Origin: a virus
Virus record (IMG/VR): IMGVR_UViG_3300044640_002221
Span: 72,924 to 136,923 of that record
Length of the DNA: 64,000 nt
Reading direction: 5' to 3' (one strand)
A program made the position numbers and the translations under genes. Position 1 is the first letter of the stretch. Every line of letters starts with the position of its first letter. Of the stretch, positions 4,707 through 64,000 are shown piece after piece. The notes below the pieces were generated by a model that had not been told where the DNA came from, did not search any database, and saw only the letters and a program-made list of their open reading frames with translations.

Positions 4707-4885
4707 AAGTGCTACTTTTTACTAGATTGCTTGACTATTATAGTTAAAAGTTAAGTTATATGCCTACTTGAAAAGATTGATGATAAACGACAAAAGCAAG
4801 CATTTACTCTATGGAATGTAAGAGCTATTATGTGTGCAAAAAACCTTTCTTAACTCAACGAACTGTTCGTCGTTTTTTTGCTAAG

Positions 4886-5584
4886 TTAATTGGGTTGAAA
4901 GTTTTTTGCTCCTATACCATGAACGTCAACTACTATATTGCCAAACCTACCATTACACTTACCACAATCTTGACAAGTTATGGCATAGTTACTACTATCT
5001 GCTGGGCAGTAGGTTTCATCCGGCAGTACAGGTTCATGTTTTTGTTTAACTCTAAAGGTCTTCCACCCTCTTGAGTTTGCTTCTGTTTTTAGTCTTACAC
5101 TTTCTACTGAAGCTTGTATATGTTGTCTCCATCTAGAGTCACAATCTCTCCATCTGTGAGTGTACCCTGTTTTGATTCTTGTCACTTTTAGTAATGCCTC
5201 CCATATTTCAAAGGGAACTGCAGTAGCTTCTCCATAAGCGGCTATTCTTAAATCTCTACCATTTAACTTGTAAGAAGTTTTAATTAAAGGATACTTATCT
5301 TCCTTATAAGCCTTGTACACCTGTCCTATAGTCATGTGGTTAACATAACAGATTCTTCCTTTACCTTTATCTCCCCTTAGAGGACAGCTACCACATACTG
5401 ACTCATCTGCTCCACTCCTAATAGCTTCTGTAGGATGAATATCTTTTGGTAAAATCCAAGTCTGTAACATCCAACCTGTCTTGCGATTAGCTGAGGGTCT
5501 AGTTGTACCTGTTACCAGCAAAATAATAGAAGCTCCATTAATTAATGAAGCTCCCTCCCATATAACATTTCCGTTTGGTATCAT
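4886..5584 (-). CDS. Conserved Cys-rich phage protein (radical-SAM-like/Gp88-like, tentative)
   Basis: SANRKTG...CGSCP...CYV, LRIAAYGE, TGYTHRW, C-terminal CPA...TCQDCGKC...VHG. Confidence 0.5.
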   Translation of the reverse strand: MIPNGNVIWEGASLINGASIILLVTGTTRPSANRKTGWMLQTWILPKDIHPTEAIRSGADESVCGSCPLRGDKGKGRICYVNHMTIGQVYKAYKEDKYPLIKTSYKLNGRDLRIAAYGEATAVPFEIWEALLKVTRIKTGYTHRWRDCDSRWRQHIQASVESVRLKTEANSRGWKTFRVKQKHEPVLPDETYCPADSSNYAITCQDCGKCNGRFGNIVVDVHGIGAKNFQPN

Positions 5585-5633
5585 CTGTTCTGGCTTATTT
5601 TAATTTCTTTCTTTCGCTCTCTCTCGTCTTTTT

Positions 5634-7269: not shown

Positions 7270-7905
7270 TTAATCTGGAAGACTTGGTAGCTGTACTAGA
7301 GAAGTATCTACCTCGGTTAGCATTGCCTCTTGTGAATGTAGAATCCCCGTGTCTTTAGACCTGGGAGTGTCAAGCTGTATTTTCTTAAGTGTCTTCACTT
7401 TACTAACAACTGTTTCACTGATATTCTGCCATAAAACATTAATAGGAGTCTGAAGAATCTCTATAATAGTAAGTGGGGCTGGTGGAATAACAACAGCTTT
7501 TGATGACTGTTCCTCTACGTCTGCTGATCTTAAAGCTTTTACATTAGATTTTGCGTTAGTCACCATCGTAGTAGATTCTAGGCTGCCAAAATCAAGTTCT
7601 AACTGGATAAACTCTTTATTGAGCTTACTTTCTTCTACTATCTCTGGATTAACTTTATTCTCTACAAAGTGTGTAGCTATGTTAGATAAAAGTAATGGAA
7701 AGTAGACAGCTCCAATACAAACTGTGATCAGACTTAAAGTTATTAGCTGTAGTGCTTTCAAACTTAGCAAGATAGCTTCTTTGAGTTGTTTTAAGGATTC
7801 TTCTGTCCACAAATCATTCTTGGCGTAATGAATAACTTGCTGAGTGTACAAGTCTAAACGCTCTTCTAAAGTTGTTAAAAGTTCTTTTTGACTGGGTAAA
7901 TACAT
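7270..7905 (-). CDS. Hypothetical membrane protein; C-terminus read through an IS605-type right end
   Basis: Hydrophobic segment ITLSLITVCIGAVYFPLLL. LDTPRSKDTGIL is the antisense reading of the IS end. Confidence 0.6.
   Translation of the reverse strand: MYLPSQKELLTTLEERLDLYTQQVIHYAKNDLWTEESLKQLKEAILLSLKALQLITLSLITVCIGAVYFPLLLSNIATHFVENKVNPEIVEESKLNKEFIQLELDFGSLESTTMVTNAKSNVKALRSADVEEQSSKAVVIPPAPLTIIEILQTPINVLWQNISETVVSKVKTLKKIQLDTPRSKDTGILHSQEAMLTEVDTSLVQLPSLPD
7341..7373 (+). mobile_element. IS200/IS605-family right end remnant
   Basis: GAAT-CCCCG-T-GTC-TTTA-GAC-CTGGG-AGTG-TCAA. Guide GAAT, subterminal hairpin and TCAA cleavage site, as in the IS608 right end. Confidence 0.75.
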
Positions 7906-8002
7906 AATTCTTTTCCTTTCTGTTAATTAAATAGTTTGGGGAGTCATAAGACCCCCCCTCTTTCTCTTTTCTTTTCTTTTCGTTTCTCTTACTTTGAGCT
8001 TA

Positions 8003-8263
8003 CTAAAACGGCTCTTGATAGCTTGGATCTAGCTTACTAAACCAATGTTTTATCCTTAAAGTTAGATAAGCCTTTAGAAGTCTTAACTGCTCTAATAAAG
8101 ATGGGCTTAATTCTACACAATCAGTTTCTTCTACTATGCTGTAGTCTGTAAATACTAGAAATGTAGCACCATAACTGTTACCAGAACAGTCACCATACAA
8201 CTCTAGCTCCGAAACCTTGTCTTTCAGCTTCTTGATTCCTTGATTTTTGATTAGATAGTACAT
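8003..8263 (-). CDS. Hypothetical protein
   Basis: 86-aa ORF with GAAGGAG SD-like sequence upstream. Confidence 0.7.
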   Translation of the reverse strand: MYYLIKNQGIKKLKDKVSELELYGDCSGNSYGATFLVFTDYSIVEETDCVELSPSLLEQLRLLKAYLTLRIKHWFSKLDPSYQEPF

Positions 8264-8303
8264 ACTACTCTTCTCCTTCCTGCTTTCTCTTTTCTTTTTT
8301 TTC

Positions 8304-8582
8304 TTACATAGCCAGCTCTGTTATGATTGGGTCTACTTCTATACCCAGTTCCTTTCTCAACAAAGTTAAGTTAGGTTTTGTGTCCTCAAAGCAAGTATTT
8401 CTTGATGTGCTGTATCTTTCTAAGATATTAGTAGTTCTGTTATAGATACCTTCTGGATATAGTGTTTCTGCATCCAGCCCTGCTTGAAGATAGAAATATG
8501 CTCCTGCGTAAGTATCCTCCTCCTGAGACCATAGAACTCCGTAACGCCAGGATAAGGCTACATAGTTATTTATCTTCTTCAT
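8304..8582 (-). CDS. Hypothetical protein
   Basis: 92-aa ORF overlapping the upstream gene end. Confidence 0.65.
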   Translation of the reverse strand: MKKINNYVALSWRYGVLWSQEEDTYAGAYFYLQAGLDAETLYPEGIYNRTTNILERYSTSRNTCFEDTKPNLTLLRKELGIEVDPIITELAM

Positions 8583-9036
8583 TCAATACTCCTGTTAAAC
8601 TAAAAGACTTCTCAGCTTTATCTAATGAGTTTCTTTCTATTCGCATCCAGTCACGCATCCAGCCGTCTACTTGACCGCGAACTGCATCCTCAAGAGGCTC
8701 ACGAATCTTCATGGTTAACTGTCTGCCATACTCTGCTACTAGAGTGTCCACTAACTTCCTAAGATTTCTATCACCAAAGCGATCGGCTATCTCATGAATC
8801 TGCTCTTTAGTTATGCTGGCGGCTATTGCTCTGATTATTCTGTCTTCTTCTTCTAAGAGATCCTCAAGATGCTTTATTTTTTGTTGATGCTCTTCTAACT
8901 GCTTCTCATATCTATTTAGAGAACACATTAAGTCTACTGTCTGCTCAAGTCTTGAAGAAAGACTATTTACTTTCTCTGTTAGTTTAAGAAGCTCTCTGAC
9001 TCCCAAAAGACTTCTAGCAAGGTTTGTAATGTTCAT
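8566..9036 (-). CDS. Hypothetical coiled-coil protein
   Basis: 156-aa ORF with heptad-like E/K/L-rich segment. Confidence 0.7.
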   Translation of the reverse strand: MNITNLARSLLGVRELLKLTEKVNSLSSRLEQTVDLMCSLNRYEKQLEEHQQKIKHLEDLLEEEDRIIRAIAASITKEQIHEIADRFGDRNLRKLVDTLVAEYGRQLTMKIREPLEDAVRGQVDGWMRDWMRIERNSLDKAEKSFSLTGVLNEEDK

Positions 9037-9068
9037 AATTGTTTAGGGTAGCTTAACTCCCCATTTCA

Positions 9069-11315
9069 TTAAATCTTGACTGTTGTTTCACCTAGTACAA
9101 AAGAAACCTTTGCTTGAACTCCATCAAACTGACCTTGTAGAGTACAGTTATCGCGGCTGTCAAACTCCGGGAACCATTGTTTACCAAGGATAACTGAGAA
9201 CTTACTGCGCTGTACTTGCGATCGCAGTTCACGCTGACGTTTCTTAACTACTTCTATCTGGCACTCCAGCCAGCCTTTAATAACTTCATCCTTACAGTTC
9301 TCTATGCAAGTTTTGAAGTAGATTAAAGTATGTACCATTGCTGTAAGAGGAGTTCCAGCTTTAAGAGTGTGAGTTTCTTCCAGAGCCTCAACAGCTTTCT
9401 CAACTTTGGGTAAAGAACTCCAGCCTGCTACTTTTAGCTCAAAGGTCTTCACTTGGTATTGATCTGTTACATCTTCCTTAACTGTTGGTGGTGCAAATCC
9501 ATTCTTAGTTATACCTTTAGACTGCAGGAACGCTGTCTGCTCTTTTGTGTAACCTTCAAAGGAAACTTGTTCTGGTGTTACTTCAGCCAGAAGATATTTA
9601 TAAACCTTTAGCTTGGCTCCCAGAACTTCATCCTCTACTGCTAAGTTAGCTAGAGTTTGACCTGCACCAAGTTGTCTTGCTGATTCGGCGATCGCTTGAT
9701 TGATGAGAGGTAGTTTATATAGTTCTGCTACTCCTTCTCTCCTGGAGCGCGTTGTTATATAAGTACCCCAATTCTCTAGCTCTTGGTTAAAGGGTTCTTG
9801 GTTGAAGATGTCAGAGATAGCTTCATCTGATAATGCTAATGGCAGTCTTGAAGTCCACAGATGACCATCTTTAATGATTGTGTAGTTTCTCCAGGTATAG
9901 GTGCTTATAGCGGCTGTAAGCCCTACTTCATCTGCATCTGGCAGATAAACAATGCCCGGTATCCTAACCAAAGCTGACAGACTCAACTTTGAGCTATTCC
10001 AAGTCAAGCCCGCAATATCAGAACTTGCTCCTTGGATGGGCTGGAACTCTGGATATCCTTCTGCCGTTACTGTCTTTCTACCTGTACGCTTGTACTTAAA
10101 GTCAGGATGAGAAGGTAAGAAAGAAGCATTATGTTCTAGCAGCTTATCTAACAAGTCCAAAACACAAAAAACATTTTTATCTGGCTGGGGATTTGCTTGG
10201 TAGCCAAATGGATATCTGTTACGAACAGGGTTAGGATAGCCAATTGAGTTAAGCGGAGGTATTGGTTTGAAAATGTTAGCTACTTGATTCTCAAACTCTC
10301 CATGCTCTTGTGCAGTAAAAGCTCTATTAAGTCCCTCGAATAGAAACTTATTACCAATTGCAGATGAAAGAGCGATCGCGTCAGCAGTCTTCATTCTTTG
10401 GTTGAGAACTACAGCCCCTGCTAAAGCACCATCAATTAATGAATGATAATCTGGGTCATTAAACTTCAAGTCATTGATAACTACTTTCTTAGAGTCACCA
10501 GCTACATCATTACTAATGAAGTAAACAGAGAAAGTGTCCCCTACGCTAGGCGGAGAGACTAATACTTCCCCAAAGGCTTGCTCATAACTACAGATGCCAC
10601 TGTGAAGAGTAAAGACGTTTAAAATCTCACCCATACCATCAAGCTCAACATTAACTTTCTTTACAGTAGGCATCCCTTCTATAAAGTCAGTCATTGCACG
10701 CCCATAGTCTTGTTGGTCTGAACAGTGGCGTAACTCCCCACCAACTTCAGCAGCCATTTGTGCTAATAATTCTTTGTTGTAGTAGTCACCATAACCAATA
10801 AACTGCGCGGAAGTGAGTCTAGACTCCAACTTTGATAAAGCAGAGCTGATGCTCTCTACTTCCTTTTTATAGTTATTTACTACTGGATAGCCGTCTGTGA
10901 ACAACCACAGCGCAAAGTTTGTACTAATCCATGACAACTCCTCAATAACATTTAAAGAGTCTTGTAGAATCTCAGAGAAGCAAGTGAGAGACAAGGATTG
11001 TTTGTACTTGTTTAGCTCCTGATCCAGCTTGTTGTGGTCTTCTTCTGTCGTCAGCTTCAAGCCTTTAAAGACAAAGCGGTACATTCCTTCCGAGCTAAAG
11101 TATCCAAAAGATAAAGTGTCTTGTGTGTTTAACTCTCTATGGCTTGTCTTGAGGTCGTCAATTAGTCTTGGCAGTTCTCTACTCATAGAACCGCTGCGGT
11201 CTACTAACCAAATGTGGTTTACTGCCGCTCTGACCTTGCTTTCTACCCGAGACTTAACAGTAACGAACTGTTCGTTCAAGTAGAGGTCTCCAAACTTGAT
11301 ATGTCTGTTAGTCAT
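9069..11315 (-). CDS. vWA-domain protein
   Basis: MIDAS motif NHIWLVDRSGSMS and LFTDGYP in the N-terminal part; long C-terminal region of unknown function. Confidence 0.85.
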   Translation of the reverse strand: MTNRHIKFGDLYLNEQFVTVKSRVESKVRAAVNHIWLVDRSGSMSRELPRLIDDLKTSHRELNTQDTLSFGYFSSEGMYRFVFKGLKLTTEEDHNKLDQELNKYKQSLSLTCFSEILQDSLNVIEELSWISTNFALWLFTDGYPVVNNYKKEVESISSALSKLESRLTSAQFIGYGDYYNKELLAQMAAEVGGELRHCSDQQDYGRAMTDFIEGMPTVKKVNVELDGMGEILNVFTLHSGICSYEQAFGEVLVSPPSVGDTFSVYFISNDVAGDSKKVVINDLKFNDPDYHSLIDGALAGAVVLNQRMKTADAIALSSAIGNKFLFEGLNRAFTAQEHGEFENQVANIFKPIPPLNSIGYPNPVRNRYPFGYQANPQPDKNVFCVLDLLDKLLEHNASFLPSHPDFKYKRTGRKTVTAEGYPEFQPIQGASSDIAGLTWNSSKLSLSALVRIPGIVYLPDADEVGLTAAISTYTWRNYTIIKDGHLWTSRLPLALSDEAISDIFNQEPFNQELENWGTYITTRSRREGVAELYKLPLINQAIAESARQLGAGQTLANLAVEDEVLGAKLKVYKYLLAEVTPEQVSFEGYTKEQTAFLQSKGITKNGFAPPTVKEDVTDQYQVKTFELKVAGWSSLPKVEKAVEALEETHTLKAGTPLTAMVHTLIYFKTCIENCKDEVIKGWLECQIEVVKKRQRELRSQVQRSKFSVILGKQWFPEFDSRDNCTLQGQFDGVQAKVSFVLGETTVKI

Positions 11316-11464
11316 GTTTATTGCTTTCTACTAGTAAATCAAACTTCATCTTTAGGTTGTCATACTGCTCTCTCCAGTAACAAACGTCGCATAGAGAAAG
11401 ACTTTCACCTAAAGGTCTGCCACAATGTCCAGGGTTTATAGCATAGCTGCCACATACTCTACAT

Positions 11465-11887
11465 TTAGTTCTCATTCTCTTTTCTTTTTTCTTCCAGTTT
11501 TCCTAGCACAAGGCTAACAAAGCCTTGTATTTTATCTACAAACATTGGTATTGCTATATGTAGCTCTTCAGAAGAGGGTACTCCACTATCAGGTAAGTGT
11601 AGGTGCTTTGGCATTACTTCTGTCCATATAGCCGGAGAGTATTCGGTTTCCTCAATATCTTCTGAGTTAGTTACCCAAAGCCAACCTGCAGTTTCACCCA
11701 AGTCTGTTAAAACAACACCTTCGTTTTTTAGCTTGCTTATTGGGTTTACATAAACATCTATCACTGTGCCATCTGGTAACGTAAATGGAGTTGAAACTTT
11801 TATTTTGCATTTTGGTACAGGTTTATTAAGCCACTCGCAGCTATAACCCTGACCAAGCTGAAGCTGTAATTGATTAGGTGTGAGCAT
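11465..11887 (-). CDS. DUF1828-like protein
   Basis: IKVSTPFTLPDGTVIDVYV...VVLTDLGETAGWL. Confidence 0.7.
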   Translation of the reverse strand: MLTPNQLQLQLGQGYSCEWLNKPVPKCKIKVSTPFTLPDGTVIDVYVNPISKLKNEGVVLTDLGETAGWLWVTNSEDIEETEYSPAIWTEVMPKHLHLPDSGVPSSEELHIAIPMFVDKIQGFVSLVLGKLEEKRKENEN

Positions 11888-11920
11888 GAGATAAAAAAGA
11901 TAAAAAGAAAATAAAAAAAT

Positions 11921-11952
11921 AAAAGAGGAAGATTTTTTCTGCTTCCTCTTTT
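11921..11952 (-). terminator. Intrinsic terminator
   Basis: AAAAGAGGAAG/CTTCCTCTTTT hairpin followed by a U-rich tract on the minus strand. Confidence 0.7.
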
Positions 11953-11966
11953 TATCTTGTTGTAGC

Positions 11967-12890: not shown

Positions 12891-13182
12891 TACTCCTATT
12901 CTGTGCGGTTATGGAAGAGACTCTACAACAGTACCAATAGCTAACAGGAGTATTGCTTCTTCTATTAGTTCTTGTTACTTCTATTAAGAATCTCTGTTGT
13001 GAAGACCTCTCAGGCTTGAACTTCCGATAGTTAGCTATATAAGGACTATACAAACTATAGAGCAGTTGTAAAGGGTCTTCACCAGCATTTACAACTGCTC
13101 TGACAATACCTATTCTTTCTACAGAGTGTTTTTTACTCCTCCAGCTCACCTGCTGATTTATCTGTACCATTGTTTCCTTCAA
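12871..13182 (-). CDS. Hypothetical protein
   Basis: 103-aa basic ORF overlapping neighbours. Confidence 0.6.
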   Translation of the reverse strand: MKETMVQINQQVSWRSKKHSVERIGIVRAVVNAGEDPLQLLYSLYSPYIANYRKFKPERSSQQRFLIEVTRTNRRSNTPVSYWYCCRVSSITAQNRSSETNGL

Positions 13183-14346: not shown

Positions 14347-14405
14347 AAATTTCTTAATTGTTGAGTTGATTGGTTAGCCCTTTTACAGACTAACCGTTTA
14401 ATTTA

Positions 14406-17623: not shown

Positions 17624-17786
17624 ATTTAGTTTATTTTAAATTCTCTTTCCCTTTTCTTTTTTCTTACAGGAGAGCTACTACTCTCCTAAATTTGCTACTT
17701 ACTACACTTGTTGTTAACTTGCTCTTTTGATGGATTCAGGTCTGCTATCACTTTTAGCTTAACCGACAAAAGCTCCACCAAGTTCT

Positions 17787-18642: not shown

Positions 18643-18668
18643 TTTGTAGTTCTTCCTCTTGGTAGTTT

Positions 18669-19061: not shown

Positions 19062-19189
19062 AATCTGCTTTTCCTTCTTCTATTTGTAAGTTAATTAAGT
19101 GTTGGTCTAGTCCTGGTTCTTTAGCTGGGTCGCTATAAAACCCAACAATCTTGCTACTAGGAATGGTTAGCAAGCCAAGCTTAGGCTGC

Positions 19190-21966: not shown

Positions 21967-22003
21967 TAGTTTTTCTTTTAGTTCCTTACTCTTTTCTTTT
22001 TTC

Positions 22004-44870: not shown

Positions 44871-44967
44871 TACAAACTCTTATAAGTTATCAAACTCTTT
44901 TCTTTTTTTCTTTTAAGGGGCTTAAAGCCCCAACGAACTGTTCGTTGCTCAAGTTGAGCACGGCGGC

Positions 44968-54600: not shown

Positions 54601-57600
54601 ACGGTAATTGGTTCTTCAACTACTGTTGGAGCAACATAAATGCTTGCTTCCCAAACTGCACGGCTGCCAGCTTTTTCTAAGTCACCTTTTACAACATCAA
54701 GATGACACTGTTTAGGACTGCACCAGCATTTAACTTCTACAAAGCCATATTCTTCAACCTTGTTCCATAGTTGAGCTATAGCAGAAAGAAAGTTAACTCT
54801 TGTAGGTTTCTTCCAAACTCTAGCTATATGGAAGTTATTATCTAAACCTCTCAAAACTGTCTGAGCAGCTCTTACTGGCTCAACACCTTGGTAAACTACA
54901 AGATTGTAGTAGTTACCATAAGCAGCCACAGATATAGCTCGGAGAGCTTCCTTGCGGTAGTCATGCTTGAAAGGATTACCTAACAGACTTTCTCTGTCTC
55001 CATCAACTCTTACCTCTTCTGGAGAGTCGTAAGCGTGCTTTTTATTCACAACGCTAACAAGACTCTGAATTAGAGAGTTTTGTTTTGGAGCTTCTTGCAC
55101 TATAGGCTCAGCTACTGCAGGCTCTACCACAACTGGTGTAACAGCCTCAGCGTTTACCTCTGCAACTAACCCTCTTACAAAGCAAAGAGCTTCTTCCCAC
55201 TTAGCTGCGGGTAGAGTTTCTTTAACTTCAACTAACTGTTTTAACACGCTGTGCGCCTCTTCTTTTGTTTCTTCTATTACAACTGATTCTATCTCAACAG
55301 GCTCTTCAAACACAGCAAAGTCAATAGGTTCAATAACTGCTAGAGCTGACTTAAAAGATACAGGAGCTTGCTGCGCTTCTTTCTTCTCTGCAATATCTAC
55401 AGGTAACTCAGCTTCTACTTCACGAGTTGCCACAACTCTTTGAAGAGTAACAAATCTACCTTTAACTAACCGAACATTAGTAAACTCTTCTGCATGAGCA
55501 ATAGATTCTGGTTGCTCTTCATCAATGTTCAAGAATTTAATCCATTCAATTTGGTTATGGAAAGTATAAACACCATATCTACGACCTTCTTCTTCCCACA
55601 CTTCTTCATCCGGTAAGAAGTAACGTTGCGTGCTGGCATCGTCATCCTCTTCTGTTACAAGAATGTCAGCCTCAACCCAGGTAACTGTTTCTTCTACAGT
55701 TTCTACAACTGGCTCAACATTAACTGTTTCTGCTTCTACTTCTACAATGCCTTTAGCAGCCAAAGCTTTGAAGTATTCTAATTGATGGGGTTGGAGTTTA
55801 GAAGGCATAACTTCTCCTGCTGCACGTCTGCCAGAACGTTCTTCAGCTTTTGCACCATATAACAGCCAATCACACTCTTCTATGACTTGATTGAGTTGAT
55901 AGCAGACTAATGACTCCTTAATCATGCTGGGGTTTTCTTTCAAGAATGTCCGAGCCATTTCCATAGCTACTTTGTGTCCTGTAGCTTTTGGATTCTTGTT
56001 ATCTGATAGCACGCCATTAAAGCCTGCAAACTTACCTCGTAGTAGCTCAAAGCTTACTAGAGCCACAGCTAACATCTGTTTGATGTTTTGTGGTACAGCC
56101 ATCTTGGTAGGTACACCATTGCTCAAGATGTGGTCACAGAACTCACCATGCTTCTCTAGGAAGAACAGTTGGTGAGCAGCGAGCATTAACTTTAAGAAGC
56201 CTTCAGATTTATCTCCAGCCATACCAAGAGCTACAATATCTTGGTTAAACTCTTTTAAGTTTGGTCTCGCTACTGTTCTTTCACCTTCTTTCAGACCTTT
56301 GAGGTACTTGCTATAGACAGTCCAGGCAGGGTTACTGAAACCACCTAGAATAATTTCGTACATAGCAGCCGTACCTGGTACTAAGTCAGCATTAGCAGCG
56401 TTGCTCCAATCCCAGCCAGTATTAGTTTTTGGGTCTTTATGGTCTATATCTATTCCTAGTTTTTGAGCAGCTAGAAGAATGTCCACAAAGTGTTCAGACC
56501 ACATAAAGATAGAGTGAGCAATACCTACAGCTTTAGTTTGTACCTCACGAGTCTTTTGGTTAAAGTCTATGTACTTATCTAAAGTCATAGTTACTTTACT
56601 GCTCTTAACAGATTTAGGCGTACCACTCAACGTCAAGGCTACTTTTTCCCAAGGTTTAATGTTGTAGTGATCTGCGGCGTACTGTTCGTTTAGGTTATCT
56701 TTATCTTCGTTTGGCTCGTCTTTTTCATTTGTAAAGACGTTAAACATTGGATAGCCTAACAGCTTACTAAGAAACTCAACATTCTCTTCAAAGCTGGTAG
56801 CTTCAAACTTTCCTTCTAGTTGAACAAAGTAATGTCCATCTCCGTCAAAGTCACCCAAATCCATTGCACAGCTAATAGGGCTTAGTCCTACAGAGTCAGC
56901 ATTAATTTGGTAGAAGTTAGCTAGGTTCTCCTCCTCTTTGATGATTCTCAACTTGAGGATTGGACCATCTGTCAATGGTGCGCGAGAGTTATGGTTAAAT
57001 ACTGTTACTTCACCAGTCTCTATCTTGTCAATCTTGAACCCAGAACGGGCGAGCTTCTGACAAACACTGTTAGGCGCAGAGGAATAAAGAACCCAGATTT
57101 CTCCGGTAGGAATGTTTGGTAAAGCAATACGTTTACCAGTGACGTTACCAGCTGCGCTGATTAGCTGTTTAGTCTTTTTGGAGTCGCATAGTTTGTCAAG
57201 AATACCGCTAACTCTCTTCTCTTCTAGAGTGGTGACAGTCACACCATTAAGGCAAGGAACTAAGATATCTCTGAAGAACTTCTGCGACATATTGTTACTA
57301 GAATCCTCAGTCTTAAGTGCCGCGGTCGCTAGTAGTGCTGGCAACCACAACTTTTTACCAGCTGCATCAAATGCCACATCTCTAAAGCAATGAGCAACCC
57401 TCTTAAACAAGTCTTGCTCATGGTGAGCTAGAGTTACATCAATATCACTAGCGGCTAATAACTCCTTCAAGTAGGCTATGTCAGCGGGTGCTAAAGACAA
57501 GGAGTCTATTTCCTTCTTAGGGTCTTTAAGAGAGATAAACTTAACTACTTTAGAACAACCAAAACTGTCACCAGATGCCATGCCTGCTATTACTAGGGAC

Positions 57601-60600
57601 ATGAACATACTTTCTTTACCAGCATCTAGGAGCTTCTTAGCTGCTTCAAACATTTCTGCTGCTGGATCTCCTGGCATCCTAGAGAATGAACGAACACTGG
57701 AAGCCATGTGGTTTGAGTCTGAGACAGCTTCTGCTACAGTGGAAGACTCGAACAACTCAACGCCATAAACAGGCGCTCCAGGAGCCCCGATGAAGCAGTA
57801 AGAGCGTTGGTAATACTCTACCAAGTCATCTTTACTGACGAATATGATGGCGTTCTGTTTAGGGTTATTAGCATAGTCAAGTGACTCAGCTATAATACCC
57901 ATTGTTTTGCCTTCAGCCTTCAAGCGGTGGTATAGAGCTAGTTCTTCTGCACCCCAGTTACTACTGCTCTTAACGTCAACCCAACCAAACTCTGCTTTTA
58001 CCTTTCTTGGGTAGAGTTCGGTCATGATTCTACCTTGATCGCCACATTGAGCTACGTGCATCCATATAGCACTACCGAAGGTTTCCTCAAAGTAGTTAAT
58101 CATTTCTTGGTACAGCCCAGCAACAACGCTGTAAGACTCAATAACCAAGTAAGGTAAGTTAGCTTTCTCACCAAGAGCAGCATGAATATCTTCTTTGAAC
58201 TCATGAAGCTTCTTAATTGCTTCTGCCTCTGGGTTGCTATAACGTAAGGTATTACCAATGACTTGCAGCCAAGAGTACAACATATCAGACTTGATAGTAT
58301 CTTGTGGTGCTATCAGTTTAATGTCCCCTAAACCTAAAGCTTGAAGGTCAGGGTTCATTGCGTTGTACAGAATCTCATGTTTAGCCTGACCCATCATAGC
58401 TTTGATGATGCCACGTAATTTAGGATTGCGGTGGGTTAGATAATAGTCGTACTCAACAGCCAGTTCTGTTGCTTTACCAACAGTTTGTACTTCAAACCAA
58501 CGAATTTCAGCTAAGTCGGCTTTATCATGCTTATTGAACTCTACAGAACCCCATACCCCTGTTTCTTTAGGAATCCAAGCTAGTTCTGTTCCAAAGAGGA
58601 TTACAGGCTTTTCAGTAAACTTAAGGGTGTGCACTCCCGTAATTTCATCAAAGCTGTATGTAGGTTCAGCGTAGTCACCCAAGCGATGTTCAATTATAGA
58701 TTGTCCCTTGAGAGTCACAGCATCCTTTAACTTCTCACCAGCAGTGTAATCAGCGAAGACTAATCTTTCAGTCTTCATGAAGTAACCAATTGGCTTTTGT
58801 TCTTCTGTACCTAAGAACAATGCCATACCTGGAGGCATAACAAAAGTAGGAGCCATACACTCTTGAACTAACCAGCCTTTCAACAACTTGGTTTGGTTAT
58901 AGTATTTGTACCCAGCTTCTACTTCACCTACTACATGGACTGCTTTAGCCATTGAGAGTGTGGCACGTTTAGCACCCTTAGATGCTTTCAGAGTCAAGGA
59001 GACAACGTAATCAGCGGCTACTTCGGCTTTTAGTCCAGTAGCTAATAGCATCCTAGCAAATAGGTTGGGAGCGCGCTCTTGTGCTAATGCTAGAGACACA
59101 TGGGTGATGCCAGCCAAGAATACTCCTTTGGCAAAGTGGAAGCCTAAAGACCTGTATTTAGGCATAGCTGCGAGCATTGCTGCTTGTTCTACTTCATCTT
59201 CAGAGTCCTTGAGAGTTTTTACTACTTGACCAGTTTTGGTCTTCAGTAGTAGTTTTAGCTCATCAGCAGTGACAGACCTTGGTTCTGTTTCGCCATTAGT
59301 CAACCACATCTTCTTGCTCTTACCCTTCTCAATTTCTCCACGCATTAAGAATGCAGTGCTGTGAGCCAGTCTACCTGTTTGTTCAGGAGTAAACTCAATA
59401 TTAGGGTTGAATGGTCTATGAATCAACACTTTCATGTTGTTTTGTAAACCGTGTAAGAAGCCGCCGTTTTGACCTAGAACTTCGGTCAACGTTAGAGGGA
59501 ACATATCATCCCCTTCTCTTAGGAGCTGAGGGAAGTTAGCAGCTAGACCATCACGAACATTAATCTTGTTATTGCCTAGCATTAACAAGAAGCCGCAGAA
59601 AGCTTGCATAAACTTACCAGTTGATGAGGCTGGTTTGACTCTAGTTACGTGAGGTGTTTTAACCTCTTGTAGTAGGTATTTGTCATCAACTAACACTTCT
59701 TTGCTGGAGATCTTGTGATAGCCACTGACTTCTATAGCTTGCTCAAATGAACGACCTTCTTGGTCATAAGCCCGACCGTCATTGCTGATTAAGATTGCGG
59801 TTGCACCACCAAAGTTGATGTTTAGCTCTTTCTCCTCGGTCATGTGGTAAGACAGAGTAGCGACACTTACTTCGTTATCTTTACTCCATCTAGCAGTTAG
59901 AACAGCAAGAACCTTTTCGACATCTTCAGGAGACCAAGAGTAGTATTGGACTGGGTTTCCATTAGTTCTTCCAAATATGTACTCTAAGGTAATCTTGGAA
60001 GCTTTTAAATCTGAACCACAGTCGTAATACTCTAGTTCTATTGCTTCTTCATCTACTTCTTTAGGAGCTCCCAAAGTATCAAAGGTTAAGTTAACTGCCT
60101 TGTACAAAGCTTCCAGCTCATTGTCTACGTTAGCGGCTACAATAGCTTTTTCTACTTCTGGGGTTTGACCTCTTCTTCTACGGGTAGAAGAAACTTGTTC
60201 AGTAGATGCCACTGGTTGTTCTACAGTCTTCTCAGCCTGAACTTTAGTAACTGGTTTAGTCCCGTTTGTTTCTTTAGTTATGGCTGCTTGAACTTTAAGA
60301 GCTTCTATACCTAATAGAGCGTAAGGACAGAAGTTCAAGATATTCTTACTACCAAGAATGGCATCTCTATCTTCTACTAGAAACACTTCAACCTTGTAGG
60401 GATAGATTCTCCACTGTATACCACCCTTATCCTTCCCTAAAGCTCTATCTTTTTTAAAGGAAGCAACAGTCACTAATGTTTGCTTTTTTCCATCTTTTAG
60501 TATTTCAGCAAGACCTCGTTCTCCTTTGTAGGTGAGAGTAGCTGTAGTTCTTTCAGGTTTTGCGTTACCTTCCCTATCTTTTACTTGACGGAAAGATTTG

Positions 60601-63600
60601 AGATCTACACTTTTACCTGTTTCTATAGCCTCTCTTATTAACTTTCTGCAGTTAACAACTGAGTCAGGTATGGTGTTATTCTTACCAAACCAACCAGCAT
60701 CAAACATATCAAGAATGATCTGTATGCCAGCGGTTGCTACAGCCTTTTCAGCCTTAAAGGTTCTTGAAGCGTACATAACTGGAGTAAACTGTGCCGTGCT
60801 GCCATTCACACAGTATTGAGCTACACAAAGATTGAAGGGTGAGGAGTCATAGGGTAGTTTGTTACCTGGTTCTGTACCACCTGACAACAAGTTATTGTTA
60901 TCTTTGGGATGTACGTCATCCACCCAATAGCTCACAAACTCTGAGTCTATGCAGGGAGAAGGCACGTTCATGGTGCATTTAGCAAACACTCCATCTTCCA
61001 TACGAATGTTAGAGCCAGCTATCACAATCTCATCTGGCTTAGCCTTTTCAGCATCAGACATACCTGTATGCTCAAAAGTAAATAAGCTTGTTAACCCAGG
61101 AACGGGGTAAAGCTCATTAAATGTAGTGCCAGGGTCTAGCATCTTAACTACTTCAGTAACACTAGACTGAGGAGTAGTGGAGATAGTTATCTCTTTGGCT
61201 GGCTTTGTAGCTTGTGTAGACTCAGTAGGGCGTTTACGAGTTTGTGGCACAGTTTGCTGCACAGTTAATAATTCCTCCTGTTTAACAATTGGTTTCTTAA
61301 CCATTCGCACGGTTAAGTTAATTCTGGTACCCTCTTCGATGTTGCCAGCGTAAGAGTGTATGCACTTGCGGTGCTTACCGTAGAACATGAACAAGTCACC
61401 TTTATTAAGAGTGAACTCGGTTACTTTGGCGTTTGGCTGCCAACTGTCTTTAATGTTGAACTTACCAGCAGCTCCTAGTGATAAAGACACAATAGGCGCG
61501 TCCACCTCTTCTGACTGATCAACGTGGTAGTTTAGAGCATTACCTGATTGGTAAACATTAACCAAGCAGCTCTCAGCCACAAACTCACCATCAAAGATAC
61601 CTTTAAAGGTGACATTGACTAGGTGTTCAACCATGTCTTTCAAGAAGGCTGGCATAGCTTTAATAGTTGTATCATCTGGTTGAGTAGTAAGGTACTCTCC
61701 TACTTTCTTGCTCTTGTCCCAAACCCAGTAGTAGTCTCCTAAACAGATGTAGTGATAACCATTGGTTTGGAATGAGGTTTTATTGGTTGCAGGGTTGTTC
61801 AGAAGGTCTACTACTTCACCCCACACTTGGTCATAAGCCTCGTTTATTAGATAGTTGGAGTAATGCTTTAACCCATCTTTGTCTACTAATGCTGTACATA
61901 CTACAGGTTTTTGAGTTGCTGGTTTTATTAACACTTCACTACAGTTGGTGCTACTGTTCGCAAAACCAAATTCTCTTAACAAACTGTCAGCTTCTTCTGA
62001 GAGAGAAGTGTCATAATAAAAACGCAACTCTCTACCTTCGTAATCTTTTAAAAAGAGAGATAACTTCAGGCGTAACTCCGTTTCTATTCCTAGCTCCTGC
62101 CATATCTTAGTGTCTTCAGCCTCACAGGGATAAGTGGTCTCAGAAGACTGAAACTTGTACACTCTCTCCTTACTAGTTTTGGACTCAAGGGGTTCACCAT
62201 CAATTTTGATGATCAGCACATCTTCTAGCTCTTGGACTAGCTCTCCTTTGTAATAATAGCTACAATCAAGAGCTTTCACTTCTAAGCTAATATCAGCTTT
62301 TACTGCTTGCACAGTAGAAGTTGTAGCTAAAGGTAAAAGTCCTCTTCTACTTTGCATGGAATCATCCTCTTTTCTCTCTTCTTTTTTCTTGCGTGGTTCA
62401 CCTAAAGGTTTTACAGACAAATTCTTGTCTAACCACAGCCAGTCAGCATCAGGATGTATTTCAAACTTTAAGGAAAGAAGGTACTCTACTACCCCTTTAA
62501 CAGTGCACTCTGCTTTATTAAACAGAACGTGCTTTCCTCTAGCCTTACCAGCTAGAACTATGTGAAGAGTGGTTTTGTTATTGTCTGTAACAAACAACTG
62601 CTGTGAGTTCTCATTAAAGTTCTCTAGTCTGGTTACACCATTAGAAGGTTTGTTTTCTACTTTGCTCTTCTCTTTTTTCTTGCTGGTAGGCGATTCAAAC
62701 TCTGGTACAACAGTATCTCCGGCTAACCATAGCAATTCAGAAGCATTCGGATTGACTTGAAAGCCAATGCTTAGTAGGTAGTCTGCAGCACCACGAATAG
62801 TGCAAGTTGGGATATGAAAACTTACTTTGTAAGTTCTTACTCCCTTTAAGTGGTTATGGATTGCTTGCCTGTTGTCTTTGTTAATAGACAGCAGCATACC
62901 TTCAATCCATTCAACCTTTTCAAGAGTTACAGGCATTACAGTTTCAGACTTCATAGACATCTCTAGGTCTGCTGTGCCTGTAGCCTCAGCAGTAGCTTTG
63001 TAGTCTGCTACTGTTTCCTCAGCTTGTTGAACATGAGACTCTGGCACAACCCCAGAGTAGAGGTTGACATCAATAGCTTCCCGCAGAGCTTCAAGCTGCT
63101 CCAAGAAAGTATCTACTATTTCTGGTATTTCCGCACTAGCAGAAACACCGGCTTTTTTCTCTTTTCTCTCTTCTTTTTTCTCGACTTTTGCTACCTCCTT
63201 CTCTAATCTTTCCATTAACTTCTCTGCGTGACGGAGTTTCCGCTCTGCTTTTGTTAGCTGTACTGGGCGTGCTGTAGGAGATACAGCTAGAGTTTCTAAC
63301 TGCTCCTCTAGCTGAGTTTTCTTCTTTGACAATTTAGCCAGCACAGGGCGTTGGTCAGGCAGCACCATTGTCTTACGAGCCTTCAACTGCGCTGGGCGAC
63401 GCATAGAAGCAGTGATTGGCTTCTCTATTTGTGTACGACGGTGTAAGCGTACAGCAGGAGCTGTCTTTAGCTGTCCTTGCCCATCTGATAAATGAGCATA
63501 TTTAACAACAGTCTCCACAGACTGCTTGGTTGCCATTACCACTGTTGGTATAGCAGGAACAAAGCGGGTTTGCTTCCGGCAGAGGGCTTGGAACTCAGGA

Positions 63601-63944
63601 GATTTAGCCCAGCCATTCTTAGCTTGGCGTGCACGGCGCACGTTAGCAGCTAGACGGTGTTGAGCCTTGCGGGAGGCTCTTGCAATTTTGTTTCTCATGT
63701 TACGTGAAGGAGCGACCTTCTTAACGCTATTAACTACAACGGACAAAGAAACTAACAACGCAGACAAATTAACATTAGCCATGAGATTGGATTCCTTAAA
63801 AGTGATAAACGATTTGACCAAAGCCTTAATGGAAGTCAGACATGAACCAACAACTGCGGCTGTACTCTTGTAGCTATAGCTGGGTTGGTTAGAGCTAACC
63901 CGTGCTATAGCAGAAGAAGAGTTGGACGGTTGTTGGTCAGCCAT
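51690..63944 (-). CDS. Giant (~4084 aa) multidomain protein: AlkB, two-barrel RNA polymerase, DUF4326, macro, SLOG-like, Pif1/RecD helicase
   Basis: Start MADQQ at 63944 with AGGAGG SD. AlkB LVNVY...YHVD...IVSLSLG...H...RINLTVR (~61300-61600). KLRGIIK (~58410), RAP and GDFDGD (56838-56852). GNPF...CWCSPKQCH (~54690-55060). Macro VQQVNC...GAGLALAI...LGSGLAGG (~53830-54250). Helicase GNAGTGKS, DEVSML, VGDFKQLEPV, AITFHGCQG (~51750-53230). Confidence 0.9.
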   Translation of the reverse strand: MADQQPSNSSSAIARVSSNQPSYSYKSTAAVVGSCLTSIKALVKSFITFKESNLMANVNLSALLVSLSVVVNSVKKVAPSRNMRNKIARASRKAQHRLAANVRRARQAKNGWAKSPEFQALCRKQTRFVPAIPTVVMATKQSVETVVKYAHLSDGQGQLKTAPAVRLHRRTQIEKPITASMRRPAQLKARKTMVLPDQRPVLAKLSKKKTQLEEQLETLAVSPTARPVQLTKAERKLRHAEKLMERLEKEVAKVEKKEERKEKKAGVSASAEIPEIVDTFLEQLEALREAIDVNLYSGVVPESHVQQAEETVADYKATAEATGTADLEMSMKSETVMPVTLEKVEWIEGMLLSINKDNRQAIHNHLKGVRTYKVSFHIPTCTIRGAADYLLSIGFQVNPNASELLWLAGDTVVPEFESPTSKKKEKSKVENKPSNGVTRLENFNENSQQLFVTDNNKTTLHIVLAGKARGKHVLFNKAECTVKGVVEYLLSLKFEIHPDADWLWLDKNLSVKPLGEPRKKKEERKEDDSMQSRRGLLPLATTSTVQAVKADISLEVKALDCSYYYKGELVQELEDVLIIKIDGEPLESKTSKERVYKFQSSETTYPCEAEDTKIWQELGIETELRLKLSLFLKDYEGRELRFYYDTSLSEEADSLLREFGFANSSTNCSEVLIKPATQKPVVCTALVDKDGLKHYSNYLINEAYDQVWGEVVDLLNNPATNKTSFQTNGYHYICLGDYYWVWDKSKKVGEYLTTQPDDTTIKAMPAFLKDMVEHLVNVTFKGIFDGEFVAESCLVNVYQSGNALNYHVDQSEEVDAPIVSLSLGAAGKFNIKDSWQPNAKVTEFTLNKGDLFMFYGKHRKCIHSYAGNIEEGTRINLTVRMVKKPIVKQEELLTVQQTVPQTRKRPTESTQATKPAKEITISTTPQSSVTEVVKMLDPGTTFNELYPVPGLTSLFTFEHTGMSDAEKAKPDEIVIAGSNIRMEDGVFAKCTMNVPSPCIDSEFVSYWVDDVHPKDNNNLLSGGTEPGNKLPYDSSPFNLCVAQYCVNGSTAQFTPVMYASRTFKAEKAVATAGIQIILDMFDAGWFGKNNTIPDSVVNCRKLIREAIETGKSVDLKSFRQVKDREGNAKPERTTATLTYKGERGLAEILKDGKKQTLVTVASFKKDRALGKDKGGIQWRIYPYKVEVFLVEDRDAILGSKNILNFCPYALLGIEALKVQAAITKETNGTKPVTKVQAEKTVEQPVASTEQVSSTRRRRGQTPEVEKAIVAANVDNELEALYKAVNLTFDTLGAPKEVDEEAIELEYYDCGSDLKASKITLEYIFGRTNGNPVQYYSWSPEDVEKVLAVLTARWSKDNEVSVATLSYHMTEEKELNINFGGATAILISNDGRAYDQEGRSFEQAIEVSGYHKISSKEVLVDDKYLLQEVKTPHVTRVKPASSTGKFMQAFCGFLLMLGNNKINVRDGLAANFPQLLREGDDMFPLTLTEVLGQNGGFLHGLQNNMKVLIHRPFNPNIEFTPEQTGRLAHSTAFLMRGEIEKGKSKKMWLTNGETEPRSVTADELKLLLKTKTGQVVKTLKDSEDEVEQAAMLAAMPKYRSLGFHFAKGVFLAGITHVSLALAQERAPNLFARMLLATGLKAEVAADYVVSLTLKASKGAKRATLSMAKAVHVVGEVEAGYKYYNQTKLLKGWLVQECMAPTFVMPPGMALFLGTEEQKPIGYFMKTERLVFADYTAGEKLKDAVTLKGQSIIEHRLGDYAEPTYSFDEITGVHTLKFTEKPVILFGTELAWIPKETGVWGSVEFNKHDKADLAEIRWFEVQTVGKATELAVEYDYYLTHRNPKLRGIIKAMMGQAKHEILYNAMNPDLQALGLGDIKLIAPQDTIKSDMLYSWLQVIGNTLRYSNPEAEAIKKLHEFKEDIHAALGEKANLPYLVIESYSVVAGLYQEMINYFEETFGSAIWMHVAQCGDQGRIMTELYPRKVKAEFGWVDVKSSSNWGAEELALYHRLKAEGKTMGIIAESLDYANNPKQNAIIFVSKDDLVEYYQRSYCFIGAPGAPVYGVELFESSTVAEAVSDSNHMASSVRSFSRMPGDPAAEMFEAAKKLLDAGKESMFMSLVIAGMASGDSFGCSKVVKFISLKDPKKEIDSLSLAPADIAYLKELLAASDIDVTLAHHEQDLFKRVAHCFRDVAFDAAGKKLWLPALLATAALKTEDSSNNMSQKFFRDILVPCLNGVTVTTLEEKRVSGILDKLCDSKKTKQLISAAGNVTGKRIALPNIPTGEIWVLYSSAPNSVCQKLARSGFKIDKIETGEVTVFNHNSRAPLTDGPILKLRIIKEEENLANFYQINADSVGLSPISCAMDLGDFDGDGHYFVQLEGKFEATSFEENVEFLSKLLGYPMFNVFTNEKDEPNEDKDNLNEQYAADHYNIKPWEKVALTLSGTPKSVKSSKVTMTLDKYIDFNQKTREVQTKAVGIAHSIFMWSEHFVDILLAAQKLGIDIDHKDPKTNTGWDWSNAANADLVPGTAAMYEIILGGFSNPAWTVYSKYLKGLKEGERTVARPNLKEFNQDIVALGMAGDKSEGFLKLMLAAHQLFFLEKHGEFCDHILSNGVPTKMAVPQNIKQMLAVALVSFELLRGKFAGFNGVLSDNKNPKATGHKVAMEMARTFLKENPSMIKESLVCYQLNQVIEECDWLLYGAKAEERSGRRAAGEVMPSKLQPHQLEYFKALAAKGIVEVEAETVNVEPVVETVEETVTWVEADILVTEEDDDASTQRYFLPDEEVWEEEGRRYGVYTFHNQIEWIKFLNIDEEQPESIAHAEEFTNVRLVKGRFVTLQRVVATREVEAELPVDIAEKKEAQQAPVSFKSALAVIEPIDFAVFEEPVEIESVVIEETKEEAHSVLKQLVEVKETLPAAKWEEALCFVRGLVAEVNAEAVTPVVVEPAVAEPIVQEAPKQNSLIQSLVSVVNKKHAYDSPEEVRVDGDRESLLGNPFKHDYRKEALRAISVAAYGNYYNLVVYQGVEPVRAAQTVLRGLDNNFHIARVWKKPTRVNFLSAIAQLWNKVEEYGFVEVKCWCSPKQCHLDVVKGDLEKAGSRAVWEASIYVAPTVVEEPITVPELTEAEQNEVDAQEATVVAWDNSLKKPERAKPPATPLSRRSIVLPEVPPVVEEEEKQAPLSIALFTEQKDEQGGIPVINRRPRPNSNGGGIAVETPEANSVAPASEPLAKPQTNLTNILDVTCGVIVQQVNCCNVSGAGLALAIGQKWPLVDKEYKAKEWKLGDVQFVKVADKLYVANVAGQHYYSTRSRQTDFDALAKGLQEVRRFAEEQNLTVYVPHRLGSGLAGGPTEASKTATWTEVQNILAQVIPHAVIVEYKSSESATTVDEQFVAKHPLDGLPSVPGAERNKIKDDAMAAVATQFIGFPAKPGVASSTENYRIAWGARANIGVYTANDVVMVSGSGVFKSSGITEADAAKVFNERYIPLVNKAIAASSKFVVGGCSGVDELLKSYVESKNYSAEWVACSYKGYWLLTPAAPKVTGRARSVVKLDPLAWLTPYIEKLETWTANEVTALVKGLNPEQQQALRLILLGGNYVLTGNAGTGKSHLSSVAVKILKLLGYWIVPVATTGLASMNLQDSQGTINRATGVGKGFDNGAREWSAAQKMVGGVTSDKTKKRFSEVQKGRKYKGVIFLIDEVSMLDTCLGYVISEGLEINQRDEAAANKARKTPIQWLCVGDFKQLEPVGGEMIMNRAVFNHKGEEVIKASLMDKLDMKLINLKQQMRQAEGSEFAQELNLLALGEGHGKHRELENCPLIKGRLKASLDEMPEDALHVFALNDELIEWNRQELTKLKAKGNRSKVYSANISVNDRSYTRASFIENFKPVEENLELVVGAPIRVKQEIKDPSDSNKLPLAAKGSRGVIVALNDDSVDVKLRNGNIIEIGRVDLHAPLDENQIPVGRFNQIPIVLAWAITFHGCQGMTEDKVVAHAYTRKRVRPNDGQTVDVVLNGTEYGAKRPMFQNNAFYVGSSRVRKLEDLYFYTGCDTVDLVTETKEQRNYRASTYRRLMFNSYRTNLHVINWLKEQAVC

Positions 63945-64000
63945 GTGGTACCTCCTACGGTGTATTGGCTGTTGGTCATAAAAAGTGACCCACAACGAAC

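Follow-up and report, generated by a model that had tools for sequence, protein, structure and literature searches.

The described systems closest to the element reported here include dispersed DNA palindromes read by protein dimers. The matS/MatP, NBS/Noc and SBS/SlmA systems use palindromes of 12–16 bp in tens of dispersed copies, whose position outweighs the neighbouring gene; matS has a length of 13 bases and a free centre. The Gram-positive LexA (Cheo/DinR) box, CGAAC-N4-GTTCG, is read by a winged-helix dimer, as are the Fur, PerR and Zur boxes, which are 15-bp 7-1-7 repeats. Fur-family proteins are documented to bind such 7-1-7 repeats (PMC11353095, PMC2189734). Annotation of large uncultured phages has mostly proceeded one gene at a time, and almost nothing is known of their cis-acting DNA signals.

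We analysed a stretch of 64,000 nt (the window), which makes up the right-hand end of a virus contig of 137 kb; the source is an uncultured lake phage with a genome of roughly 200 kb. An earlier note had described a 13-bp palindrome recurring along the window, two of its copies intergenic and one cut in half by the edge, and had considered it far too frequent for chance. All of the coordinates were verified in the window sequence: the exact copies read ACGAACTGTTCGT, those at 4858 and 44933 are indeed the intergenic ones, and the half copy at 63995 is genuine, the final letters of the window being ...CACAACGAAC. Rarity by chance was upheld as well, with 12 matches at ≤1 mismatch against 0.01 expected (mean of 100 dinucleotide shuffles). 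The copies in the window, to which no strand is assigned, and the two proteins considered as binders are the following:

4858–4870, no strand: exact copy, intergenic, 15 nt past the stop of a 232-aa gene (4886–5584, minus strand), with 151 nt between it and the next ORF start
11263–11275, no strand: exact copy in the vWA gene, codons 14–18 (LYLNEQFVT)
21235–21247, no strand: exact copy in the ATP-grasp gene, codons 14–18 (DEQFV), 43 nt past the stop of the upstream gene
30166–30178, no strand: one-mismatch copy, ACGAACTGTTTGT, codons 5–8 of a 138-aa ORF in another frame (TNSS), after a terminator-like hairpin
32509–32521, no strand: one-mismatch copy, ACGAACTGTTCGC, within the final six codons of the dNMP kinase gene, the next start following after about 20 nt
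44933–44945, no strand: exact copy, intergenic, 22 nt past the stop of an 88-aa ORF
53785–53797, no strand: exact copy midway along the giant gene (TTVDEQFVAKH)
63995–64000, no strand: left half, cut by the contig end and completed by positions 122–134 of contig G031
2983–4335, minus strand: 450-aa protein matching DUF3102 at its N terminus, encoded in the gene row that lies downstream of the copy at 4858
44058–44870, minus strand: 270-aa protein, candidate binder, with a C-terminal winged helix-turn-helix at about residues 185–260

The second IMG/VR contig, G031, overlaps the end of the window by 127 nt at 100% identity, and the joined genome, of about 199 kb, holds 14 exact and six one-mismatch copies at intervals of about 10 kb. 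This is the sole over-represented 6-1-6 palindrome in the genome, which contains no everted copies of it. Once completed, the arms of the edge copy are perfect over 17 bp, and a U-run follows them on the minus strand; the copy is an intrinsic terminator that follows an upstream gene after 23 nt and precedes the ATG of the giant gene (63944, SD AGGAGG) by about 50 nt. That the contig ends within the motif is accounted for by this 35-bp perfect palindrome, which broke the assembly, together with the k=127 overlap, and not by a physical DNA end at 63995–64000.

Four of the in-gene copies in the window, in the vWA, ATP-grasp, dNMP kinase and giant genes (11263, 21235, 32509 and 53785), share the frame xAC GAA CAG TTC GTY and encode EQFV, as the earlier note had observed. 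The EQFV peptide occurs six times, against 0.35 expected, and its codons are always GAA CAG TTC GTY, although TTC (30%) and CAG (39%) are minority codons and the commonest Val codon is GTA. Shuffling of synonymous codons (300 rounds), which leaves the four intergenic copies in place, gave 0.22 coding copies against the five observed. Conservation at synonymous positions was found at one orthologous site: in the related phage G055 (42% protein identity), the ThyX-like gene has at its 5' end a site that matches at 17/18 nt, and 5/5 identical residues share their codon, compared with 38.5% along the whole gene. The DNA sequence itself is under selection; a short DNA word is strong enough to dictate residues in six or more unrelated proteins. 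The copy at 11263 is truly coding, because homologues conserve this N-terminus of the vWA protein.

Most of the sites are not conserved in G055, whose contig (59% complete) retains two copies of the palindrome, and the copy at 32509 is missing from dNMP kinase relatives of 63–75% identity, which have NKQFMEV there, indicating that individual sites turn over fast. At the position equivalent to 21235, ATP-grasp relatives carry either DEQFV or DELFV; the second would differ from the first by a change of the centre base alone if the Leu codon is CTG. The motif was absent from distant relatives from similar habitats, and a text search of the literature for it returned unrelated primers only.

Across the 14 exact copies, the element extends to a 15-bp 7-1-7 inverted repeat, R-ACGAAC-W-GTTCGT-Y. 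The flanking base is a purine on the own strand of each half-site (A 15, G 7), flanks that would pair G with C do not occur, and both of the variants disrupt pairing on one strand. The arms are invariant and show no covariation, and the centre is A at one and T at the other of two paralogous tail-fibre upstream sites. The symmetry is one of base identity rather than of pairing, a pattern that a homodimer reading two RACGAAC half-sites would give. The layout is that of the Fur, PerR and Zur boxes, but the half-site is ACGAAC here and GATAAT there, and those boxes lie at −35/−10 whereas the present copies lie past stops and in 5' coding regions. In length, copy number and independence from the neighbouring gene, the palindrome also resembles matS, NBS and SBS; in contrast to those systems, it lies in the genome of a lytic-type phage, its copies favour the 50 nt past stops, and proteins like MatP, Noc or ParB were not found.

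Placement follows gene ends closely, with 9/14 exact copies lying 0–50 nt past a stop codon (5.9% for random positions, P 1.4e-8); in long intergenic spaces, copies keep near the stop and not near the next start. Five copies lie 17–47 nt inside the next gene (RNR, vWA, ATP-grasp, a 136-aa ORF and the 138-aa ORF), and the one at 53785 is the only window copy distant from any gene boundary. This placement could reflect tolerance alone, that is, the space available past stops, variable N-termini and linkers. The copies are spaced more evenly than at random (CV 0.51, P 0.0007 for 20 sites; P 0.017 for the 14 exact copies), in a test that leans partly on the one-mismatch copies and on the joining of two contigs. 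A sigma-70 scan and an A-rich motif put promoter-like elements elsewhere than over the copies, most of which lie 6–50 nt past the upstream stop. A rule of this kind, past stops and about every 10 kb, is not fully explained by a promoter operator, a terminator, parS or Chi.

The earlier note had proposed a dispersed protein-binding site that organises the genome, in the manner of parS, matS or NBS. What stands of this is a non-random, DNA-selected and evenly dispersed palindrome of the kind bound by dimers; the parS/ParB version does not, since ParB_N (PF02195) gave zero matches at E up to 0.1 in contigs G000 and G031 while control genomes were positive. There is in our judgement an even chance that the palindrome is the docking site of a dimeric phage DNA-binding protein that marks gene ends, with the 270-aa protein as candidate; protein binding, the identity of the binder and the effect of binding are all what we infer from the pattern. 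The palindrome would work as double-stranded DNA, on which a sequence-specific dimer made by the phage would dock at about 20 sites across about 199 kb. Bound protein might mark the ends of genes or transcription units as a roadblock, insulator or architectural anchor, a role that would differ from that of a classical promoter operator. It is a bolder and unlikely proposal that a lineage-specific winged-helix protein on about 20 evenly placed palindromes forms a genome-wide boundary system of a jumbo-size lytic phage. Such a system could be a protein-mediated terminator or insulator, similar to mTERF or Reb1, or a set of loop anchors, which would divide the 200-kb genome into roughly 10-kb units. 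To our knowledge, no genome-wide boundary system of this type has been described for phages.

Gene-end placement would also suit an element acting in RNA, alone or bound by protein, as a terminator, attenuator, 3'-end stabiliser or processing site, a reading that we consider improbable. In its favour are the nine exact copies within 50 nt past a stop, the nearness to the stop rather than to the next start in long intergenic spaces, and the related phage G055, which terminates with one conserved hairpin sequence (GGTAGCCGCGCGGCTACC). Two exact copies form the ends of −27 kcal/mol hairpins, at their tips, with U-runs; as these are strong terminators, and placement after stops is typical of terminators, the element may have a role in the transcript. 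However, by the criterion of a stable G+C-rich stem with a U-run, only these 2/14 exact copies qualify as intrinsic terminators; the other 12 lack the U-run and fold at −2 to −6 kcal/mol, a range that holds for the RNA hairpin of the 13-mer in general, which is mostly unformed in context. The arms are invariant instead of covarying, the variants break pairing, and termination at the five copies inside the next gene would abolish the expression of the translationally coupled genes that hold them. The comparison with the PeSL cassettes of T4-type phages and with repeated terminator hairpins such as that of G055 runs the same way: all are repeated gene-boundary elements of large T4-like phages, two of the present copies are embedded in real terminators and a role as recombination joint is hinted at, but most copies here are of 13–15 bp without a U-run, half lie in coding sequence, and the promoter-like A-rich motif stands apart from them.

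A phage nuclease or recombinase that nicks, cuts or recombines at the palindrome is distinctly improbable. It may start recombination-dependent replication, load clamps or shuffle modules, with the 13–17 bp of identity serving as in-frame microhomology. Homodimeric nucleases typically recognise odd-centred W palindromes, and the even spacing of about 10 kb would suit such an enzyme, as would a related contig that is alike through the copy at 21235 and diverges 2 nt beyond it, in frame (...AAAPVDEQFV). Nevertheless, this is a single junction whose coincidence with a copy has a chance of about 0.2, given roughly 100 joints or loose ends in 17 kb. The 35-bp palindrome and the k=127 overlap account for the break of the contig in the motif, the 19 other copies were assembled unbroken, and no nuclease is tied to the site.

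The phage might instead borrow the site of a host transcription factor with CGAAC half-sites, LexA-like or another global regulator, so that host physiology gates phage genes, but we hold this to be very unlikely. The half-site CGAAC/GTTCG is that of the Cheo box, whose reader is likewise a winged-helix dimer, and several copies lie near the nucleotide-metabolism genes RNR, ThyX-like, dNMP kinase, primase and helicase. Against this, copies are spread alike over early, replication and structural modules, and distant relatives of similar habitats lack the motif. The Cheo geometry does not apply: every copy has a spacer of one base and not four, and its half-sites therefore lie on helix faces other than those of the Cheo box. 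SOS genes are absent, and the candidate binder is without the S24 peptidase domain of LexA.

The claim that all copies have the same orientation was correct for the window, where the centre is T on the plus strand in 7/7 full copies, but fails genome-wide. Unlike these seven, the edge copy completed by G031 carries A on the plus strand, and on coding strands the ratio of A to T at the centre is 11:3 when exact copies are counted and 14:6 when all are. In general, AACAGTT exceeds AACTGTT 3:1 on coding strands, and against a background of 0.7 the ratio among the copies has a P of 0.36. We rejected orientation as a functional polarity, since 11:3 is close to this 3:1 and the centre flips between paralogous sites; the shared EQFV frame follows from codon constraints. 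A polar signal on one strand (an N4-type hairpin promoter, an ops/RfaH-type hairpin or a Chi/KOPS-type sequence) would agree with A on the coding strand in 7/7 full window copies, with the lone inverted copy upstream of the window lying in a plus-strand gene block and with a GDFDGD motif in the giant protein, but is extremely improbable, being largely refuted by the genome-wide ratios and by centre flips at the paralogous tail-fibre sites and in ATP-grasp relatives, and facing the lack of a NusG/RfaH-like gene, flanks without a conserved element at a fixed distance and a promoter-like element that is the separate A-rich motif. The hairpin promoters of the N4 virion RNA polymerase are similar as 13-base near-palindromes with a 5–7-bp stem and a 3-nt loop in a giant-protein phage; here, however, the centre base is not strand-fixed and copies occur past start codons and in all gene classes. 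Five copies are downstream of confirmed start codons and are therefore not promoters for those genes.

For the reading as a docking site marking gene ends, the leading binder candidate would be the 270-aa protein with its C-terminal Fur-like winged helix. The earlier note had listed DUF3102-like and winged-helix proteins as possible binders: a winged-helix protein does adjoin the copy at 44933, but nothing ties the DUF3102 450-aa protein to the motif. The 270-aa protein is single-copy, and has only five relatives among 1.84 billion representatives. Its residues 190–263 match the Pfam families FUR (E 2e-4) and Arg_repressor (E 4e-4). In the structure model the winged helix has a pLDDT of 83–90, the best PDB folds are PerR, Fur, ArgR and Nur, and structural matches in the Atlas include Fur-domain clusters. 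The DNA-binding domain is thus nearest to the Fur family in both sequence and fold. Membership of that family was rejected, given that the score against PF01475, 21.9 bits, is under the curated cut-off of 23.1 and that a Fur dimerisation or metal-binding domain is missing from the protein; the match covers profile positions 3–76 of 121, and the winged helix is C-terminal, not N-terminal. Because only the DNA-binding domain is Fur-like, with a score below the cut-off, what connects protein and site is adjacency and the 7-1-7 analogy. The G055 fragment, a 59% complete contig that keeps two copies, yielded no homologue.

If this winged-helix neighbour binds, it would form a simple pair of protein and site, makeable from sequence alone, with which the partitioning or insulation of a 200-kb phage genome could be tested; if it does not, the motif still marks a phage lineage and recombination joints. 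The ATG of the candidate gene is 62 nt downstream of the copy at 44933, a distance that would permit autoregulation. Two other small hairpins flank this copy, and an A-rich promoter-like motif lies 38 nt downstream of it.

The palindrome ACGAACTGTTCGT is a real signal, is under selection at the DNA level and is partly conserved. A search allowing up to one mismatch recovered the copies reported in the earlier note, exact at window positions 4858, 11263, 21235, 44933 and 53785 and with one mismatch at 30166 and 32509, and the claim that they far exceed chance held, with a mean of 0.01 matches in dinucleotide-preserving shuffles. The window derives from G000 (positions 72924-136923), a 136,923-bp virus contig from lake-water metagenomes (CheckV 71%), which contains nine exact copies, eight with a + strand central T and one, at 71024, inverted within a + strand gene block, as well as five one-mismatch copies.

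Two 15-mer scans of IMG/VR returned around 200 single, chance-level matches, plus the sequences G031 and G055, the latter from a related phage. From its sequence, G031 (IMGVR_UViG_3300044640_001993), a 62,397-bp IMG/VR record with five exact copies, seems to continue the same phage genome, which would then measure 199,193 bp over the two joined pieces. The last 127 bases of G000 recur at 100% identity as the first 127 of G031, with no further match between them, which is the pattern of adjacent contigs in a k=127 assembly graph; this overlap, together with the agreeing base composition and the synteny of G055 with both pieces, led us to treat G031 as the continuation.

Overlap between the two contigs
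Window 63874-64000 and L153 (the locus of G031) 1-127, 127 identical bases

The window ends in ...CACAACGAAC, and the half copy at this edge is completed in G031, inside a perfect palindrome whose arms span 17 bp and which UUUUUAU follows on the gene strand. This structure is a -27 kcal/mol intrinsic terminator, situated 23 nt past the upstream gene and about 50 nt ahead of the ATG of a giant gene (window 63944, preceded by AGGAGG). Because a long perfect palindrome (35 bp) lies at the join, the contig end within the motif was attributed to an assembly break, and its reading as a physical DNA end was dropped. The joined genome contains 14 exact and six one-mismatch copies. In an unbiased k-mer and palindrome census, this motif was the sole over-represented dispersed 6-1-6 palindrome of the genome, where the everted form GTTCGT-N-ACGAAC had zero occurrences; a text search of the literature with the motif retrieved unrelated primers only. 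AGAAGAGTTAAAGAA was ruled out as a second motif, since it merely codes for EELKK-type peptides.

Selection acts at the nucleic-acid level. The contig encodes the peptide EQFV six times, as compared with 0.35 expected, with the codons GAA CAG TTC GTY in all six cases, despite CAG (39%) and TTC (30%) being minority codons and GTA the commonest codon for valine. The excess withstood a codon-shuffled control (300 rounds, synonymous within each ORF), which yielded 0.22 coding copies vs five observed, and four intergenic copies remain besides. The common reading frame that had been described is indeed shared by the listed EQFV copies, but other frames are also used, by copy 30166 and by two copies in G031; the frame is shared because the other two require rare ACG/TCG or CGA/CGT codons. 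A swapped 14-codon leader, common to three genes and ending at the motif, was ruled out, as these leaders bear no relation to one another.

No close relative emerged when IMG/VR and JGI metagenomes were scanned using proteins, alignments and a degenerate N-terminal DNA pattern. The motif is absent from 21 IMG/VR phages with a vWA protein 28-36% identical to that containing copy 11263, and two of these distant relatives, G001 and G011, both read completely, have no analogous palindrome. MTNRHIKFGDLYLNEQFVT is kept in proteins sharing 76-86% identity with the vWA protein, and DE[Q/L]FV in relatives of the ATP-grasp protein (copy 21235) down to 58% identity. Relatives of the dNMP kinase (copy 32509) with 63-75% identity show NKQFMEV at the place of the motif, so this copy is either young or has been lost elsewhere. 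The related phage G055 (87 kb, 34% G+C, 42-77% protein identity) contains two exact copies, one of which matches the place of the one-mismatch copy at genome position 36560, in codons 13-17 of a ThyX-like gene. Conservation at synonymous positions, proposed as a check in the earlier note, was confirmed at this one site: 17 of 18 nt are identical between G055 and G000, and the codon is the same in 5/5 shared residues vs a gene-wide codon identity of 38.5% for shared residues. The motif is missing at five other orthologous positions in G055, indicating that sites turn over quickly.

A contig from lake run X13 matches the window through copy 21235, diverges at window 21249 and reads in frame ...KSGGGAAAPVDEQFV in place of the ATP-grasp N-terminus; it may have arisen by recombination at the motif. 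G055 also contains a G+C-rich palindrome, GGTAGCCGCGCGGCTACC, in about 12 copies, most of them just past stop codons and ahead of a T-run, which makes it a repeated-sequence terminator.

Examples of GGTAGCCGCGCGGCTACC in the related phage
Loci L157-L161, e.g. G055:16910, 18026, 23081, 55371 and 82004

Copies of the motif gather at gene ends. The centre lies 0-50 nt past a stop codon in nine of the 14 exact copies (5.9% at random, P 1.4e-8), a start codon is at most 75 nt away in eight (P 8e-4), and ten are intergenic or no more than 60 nt from an ORF end (P 9e-5). In long spacers, the copy is 6-30 nt from the upstream stop and anywhere between 34 and 158 nt from the next start; with abutting genes, it falls within the first 5-18 codons of the next gene. 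The coding status of copy-bearing N-termini is backed by homologues (vWA, ATP-grasp), and hence the motif is not the promoter of those genes. Other copies occupy variable linkers, or insertions missing from G055, and two copies are the tips of strong terminators. Spacing is evener than expected at random, the CV being 0.51 (P 0.0007) over all 20 copies and 0.565 (P 0.017) over the 14 exact ones, with a smallest gap of at least 2.3 kb (P 0.006). A scan for sigma-70 promoters and terminators around copies 4858 and 11263 performed no better than shuffles, the search for a NusG/RfaH-like gene came up empty, and around 45 neighbouring ORFs gave mostly no matches to Pfam and PHROGs.

The best-supported mechanism, to which we assign an even chance, is that the motif is a duplex-DNA site for a putative dimeric phage protein, which would mark gene ends at regular intervals. 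What is conserved in the motif is R-ACGAAC-W-GTTCGT-Y, extended to CA...TG in some copies, with no further conserved positions within 35 nt of the motif. Each half-site is flanked by a purine on its own strand; flank pairs G..C are never seen and A..C "mismatches" are as frequent as G..T, indicating a symmetry of base identity and not of pairing. A transcript-level hairpin at gene ends is rather unlikely, because the 13-mer as RNA has a folding energy of just -2 to -6 kcal/mol and for the most part does not form in 93-nt contexts; both window variants, moreover, disrupt pairing on one strand each. Together, the base-identity symmetry, the weak RNA fold and the unconserved flanks fit a homodimer on two RACGAAC half-sites of duplex DNA better than a hairpin.

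For such a homodimer, a 270-aa protein, whose gene lies 62 nt downstream of copy 44933, is a candidate binder, as a lead and not a demonstration. Its residues 190-263 match the DNA-binding domains of Fur (E 2e-4, just below the cut-off) and ArgR (E 4e-4), and its sole PDB sequence match is H. pylori Fur. AlphaFold, with an alignment of the five known relatives, predicted a confident winged helix at residues 185-260 (pLDDT 83-90), for which the best solved folds were PerR, Fur, ArgR and Nur, and the ESM Atlas was in line with these matches. Dimers of the Fur family recognise 7-1-7 repeats (PMC11353095, PMC2189734). The candidate is single-copy and limited to this lineage, and no homologue was seen in the G055 fragment. 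The DUF3102 protein previously put forward as a binder is present (window 2983-4335), but nothing links it to the motif. Two genes downstream of it lies a gene for a phage sigma-70-type factor (window 1913-2929, minus strand; phrog_351, E 2e-60).

We regard a nuclease or recombinase site as unlikely and a site for a host factor as decidedly so, and the parS-type reading was not supported, because neither G000 nor G031 encodes a ParB-like protein. A strand-polar signal is highly improbable. The coding-strand centre is A in 7/7 full copies of the window; contrary to the earlier claim, however, the orientation is not always the same, since across the genome exact copies stand at 11:3, and at 14:6 once variants are included. 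On coding strands, AACAGTT and AACTGTT occur at 43:15, a background against which 11/14 is unremarkable (P 0.36). Additionally, the centre flips between paralogous sites upstream of two tail-fibre genes of around 1250 aa, being A at 71024 and T at G031:36979. The sole peptide change among ATP-grasp relatives, DEQFV to DELFV, corresponds to the centre base provided that Leu is encoded by CTG. From the ratio relative to background and the flipped centres, we take the centre to be W and the polarity to be without function, and readings of the Chi, ops or N4-promoter kind thereby lose their main argument.

The polypurine sequence AAAAAAGAAAAGAG (up to one mismatch) has 35 copies on the minus strand and a single one on the plus strand; they typically follow a hairpin, lie 11-60 nt ahead of a start codon and are nearly missing from the + strand structural block. 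Read on the coding strand, the sequence frequently has TAAG before it and aAAGG after it. Judging from its sequence context, it is likely a class-specific promoter, separate from the palindrome, to which it bears no fixed relation.

Copies of AAAAAAGAAAAGAG, minus strand
Window 44895-44908
Window 21989-22002
Window 11477-11490
Window 8287-8300
About 30 more

A small, uncalled Cys-rich ORF (MRTKCRVCGSYAINPGHCGRP...; window 11320-11462, minus strand) starts directly after an A-rich motif and lies just upstream of the vWA gene. This one phage genome also contains three giant ORFs.

Giant ORFs
Window 51690-63944, minus strand, about 4084 aa
Genome 7353-19574, plus strand, about 4073 aa
L153:9120-20915, minus strand, about 3931 aa

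For the giant protein of the window, the DFDGD region had no sequence match in the PDB; this protein contains 2OG-Fe(II) oxygenase, DUF4326, phosphatase-like and Dda/PIF1 helicase domains, with a GDFDGD motif at residue 2383. Finally, TAAAG-N-CTTTA is found eight times in the contig and 11 times in the joined genome, with a crude expectation below one; all copies are within coding sequence and their flanks are not shared.

Copies of TAAAG-N-CTTTA, genome positions
5442
10903
26589
32788
61062
72386
93730 (window 20807)
104317 (window 31394)
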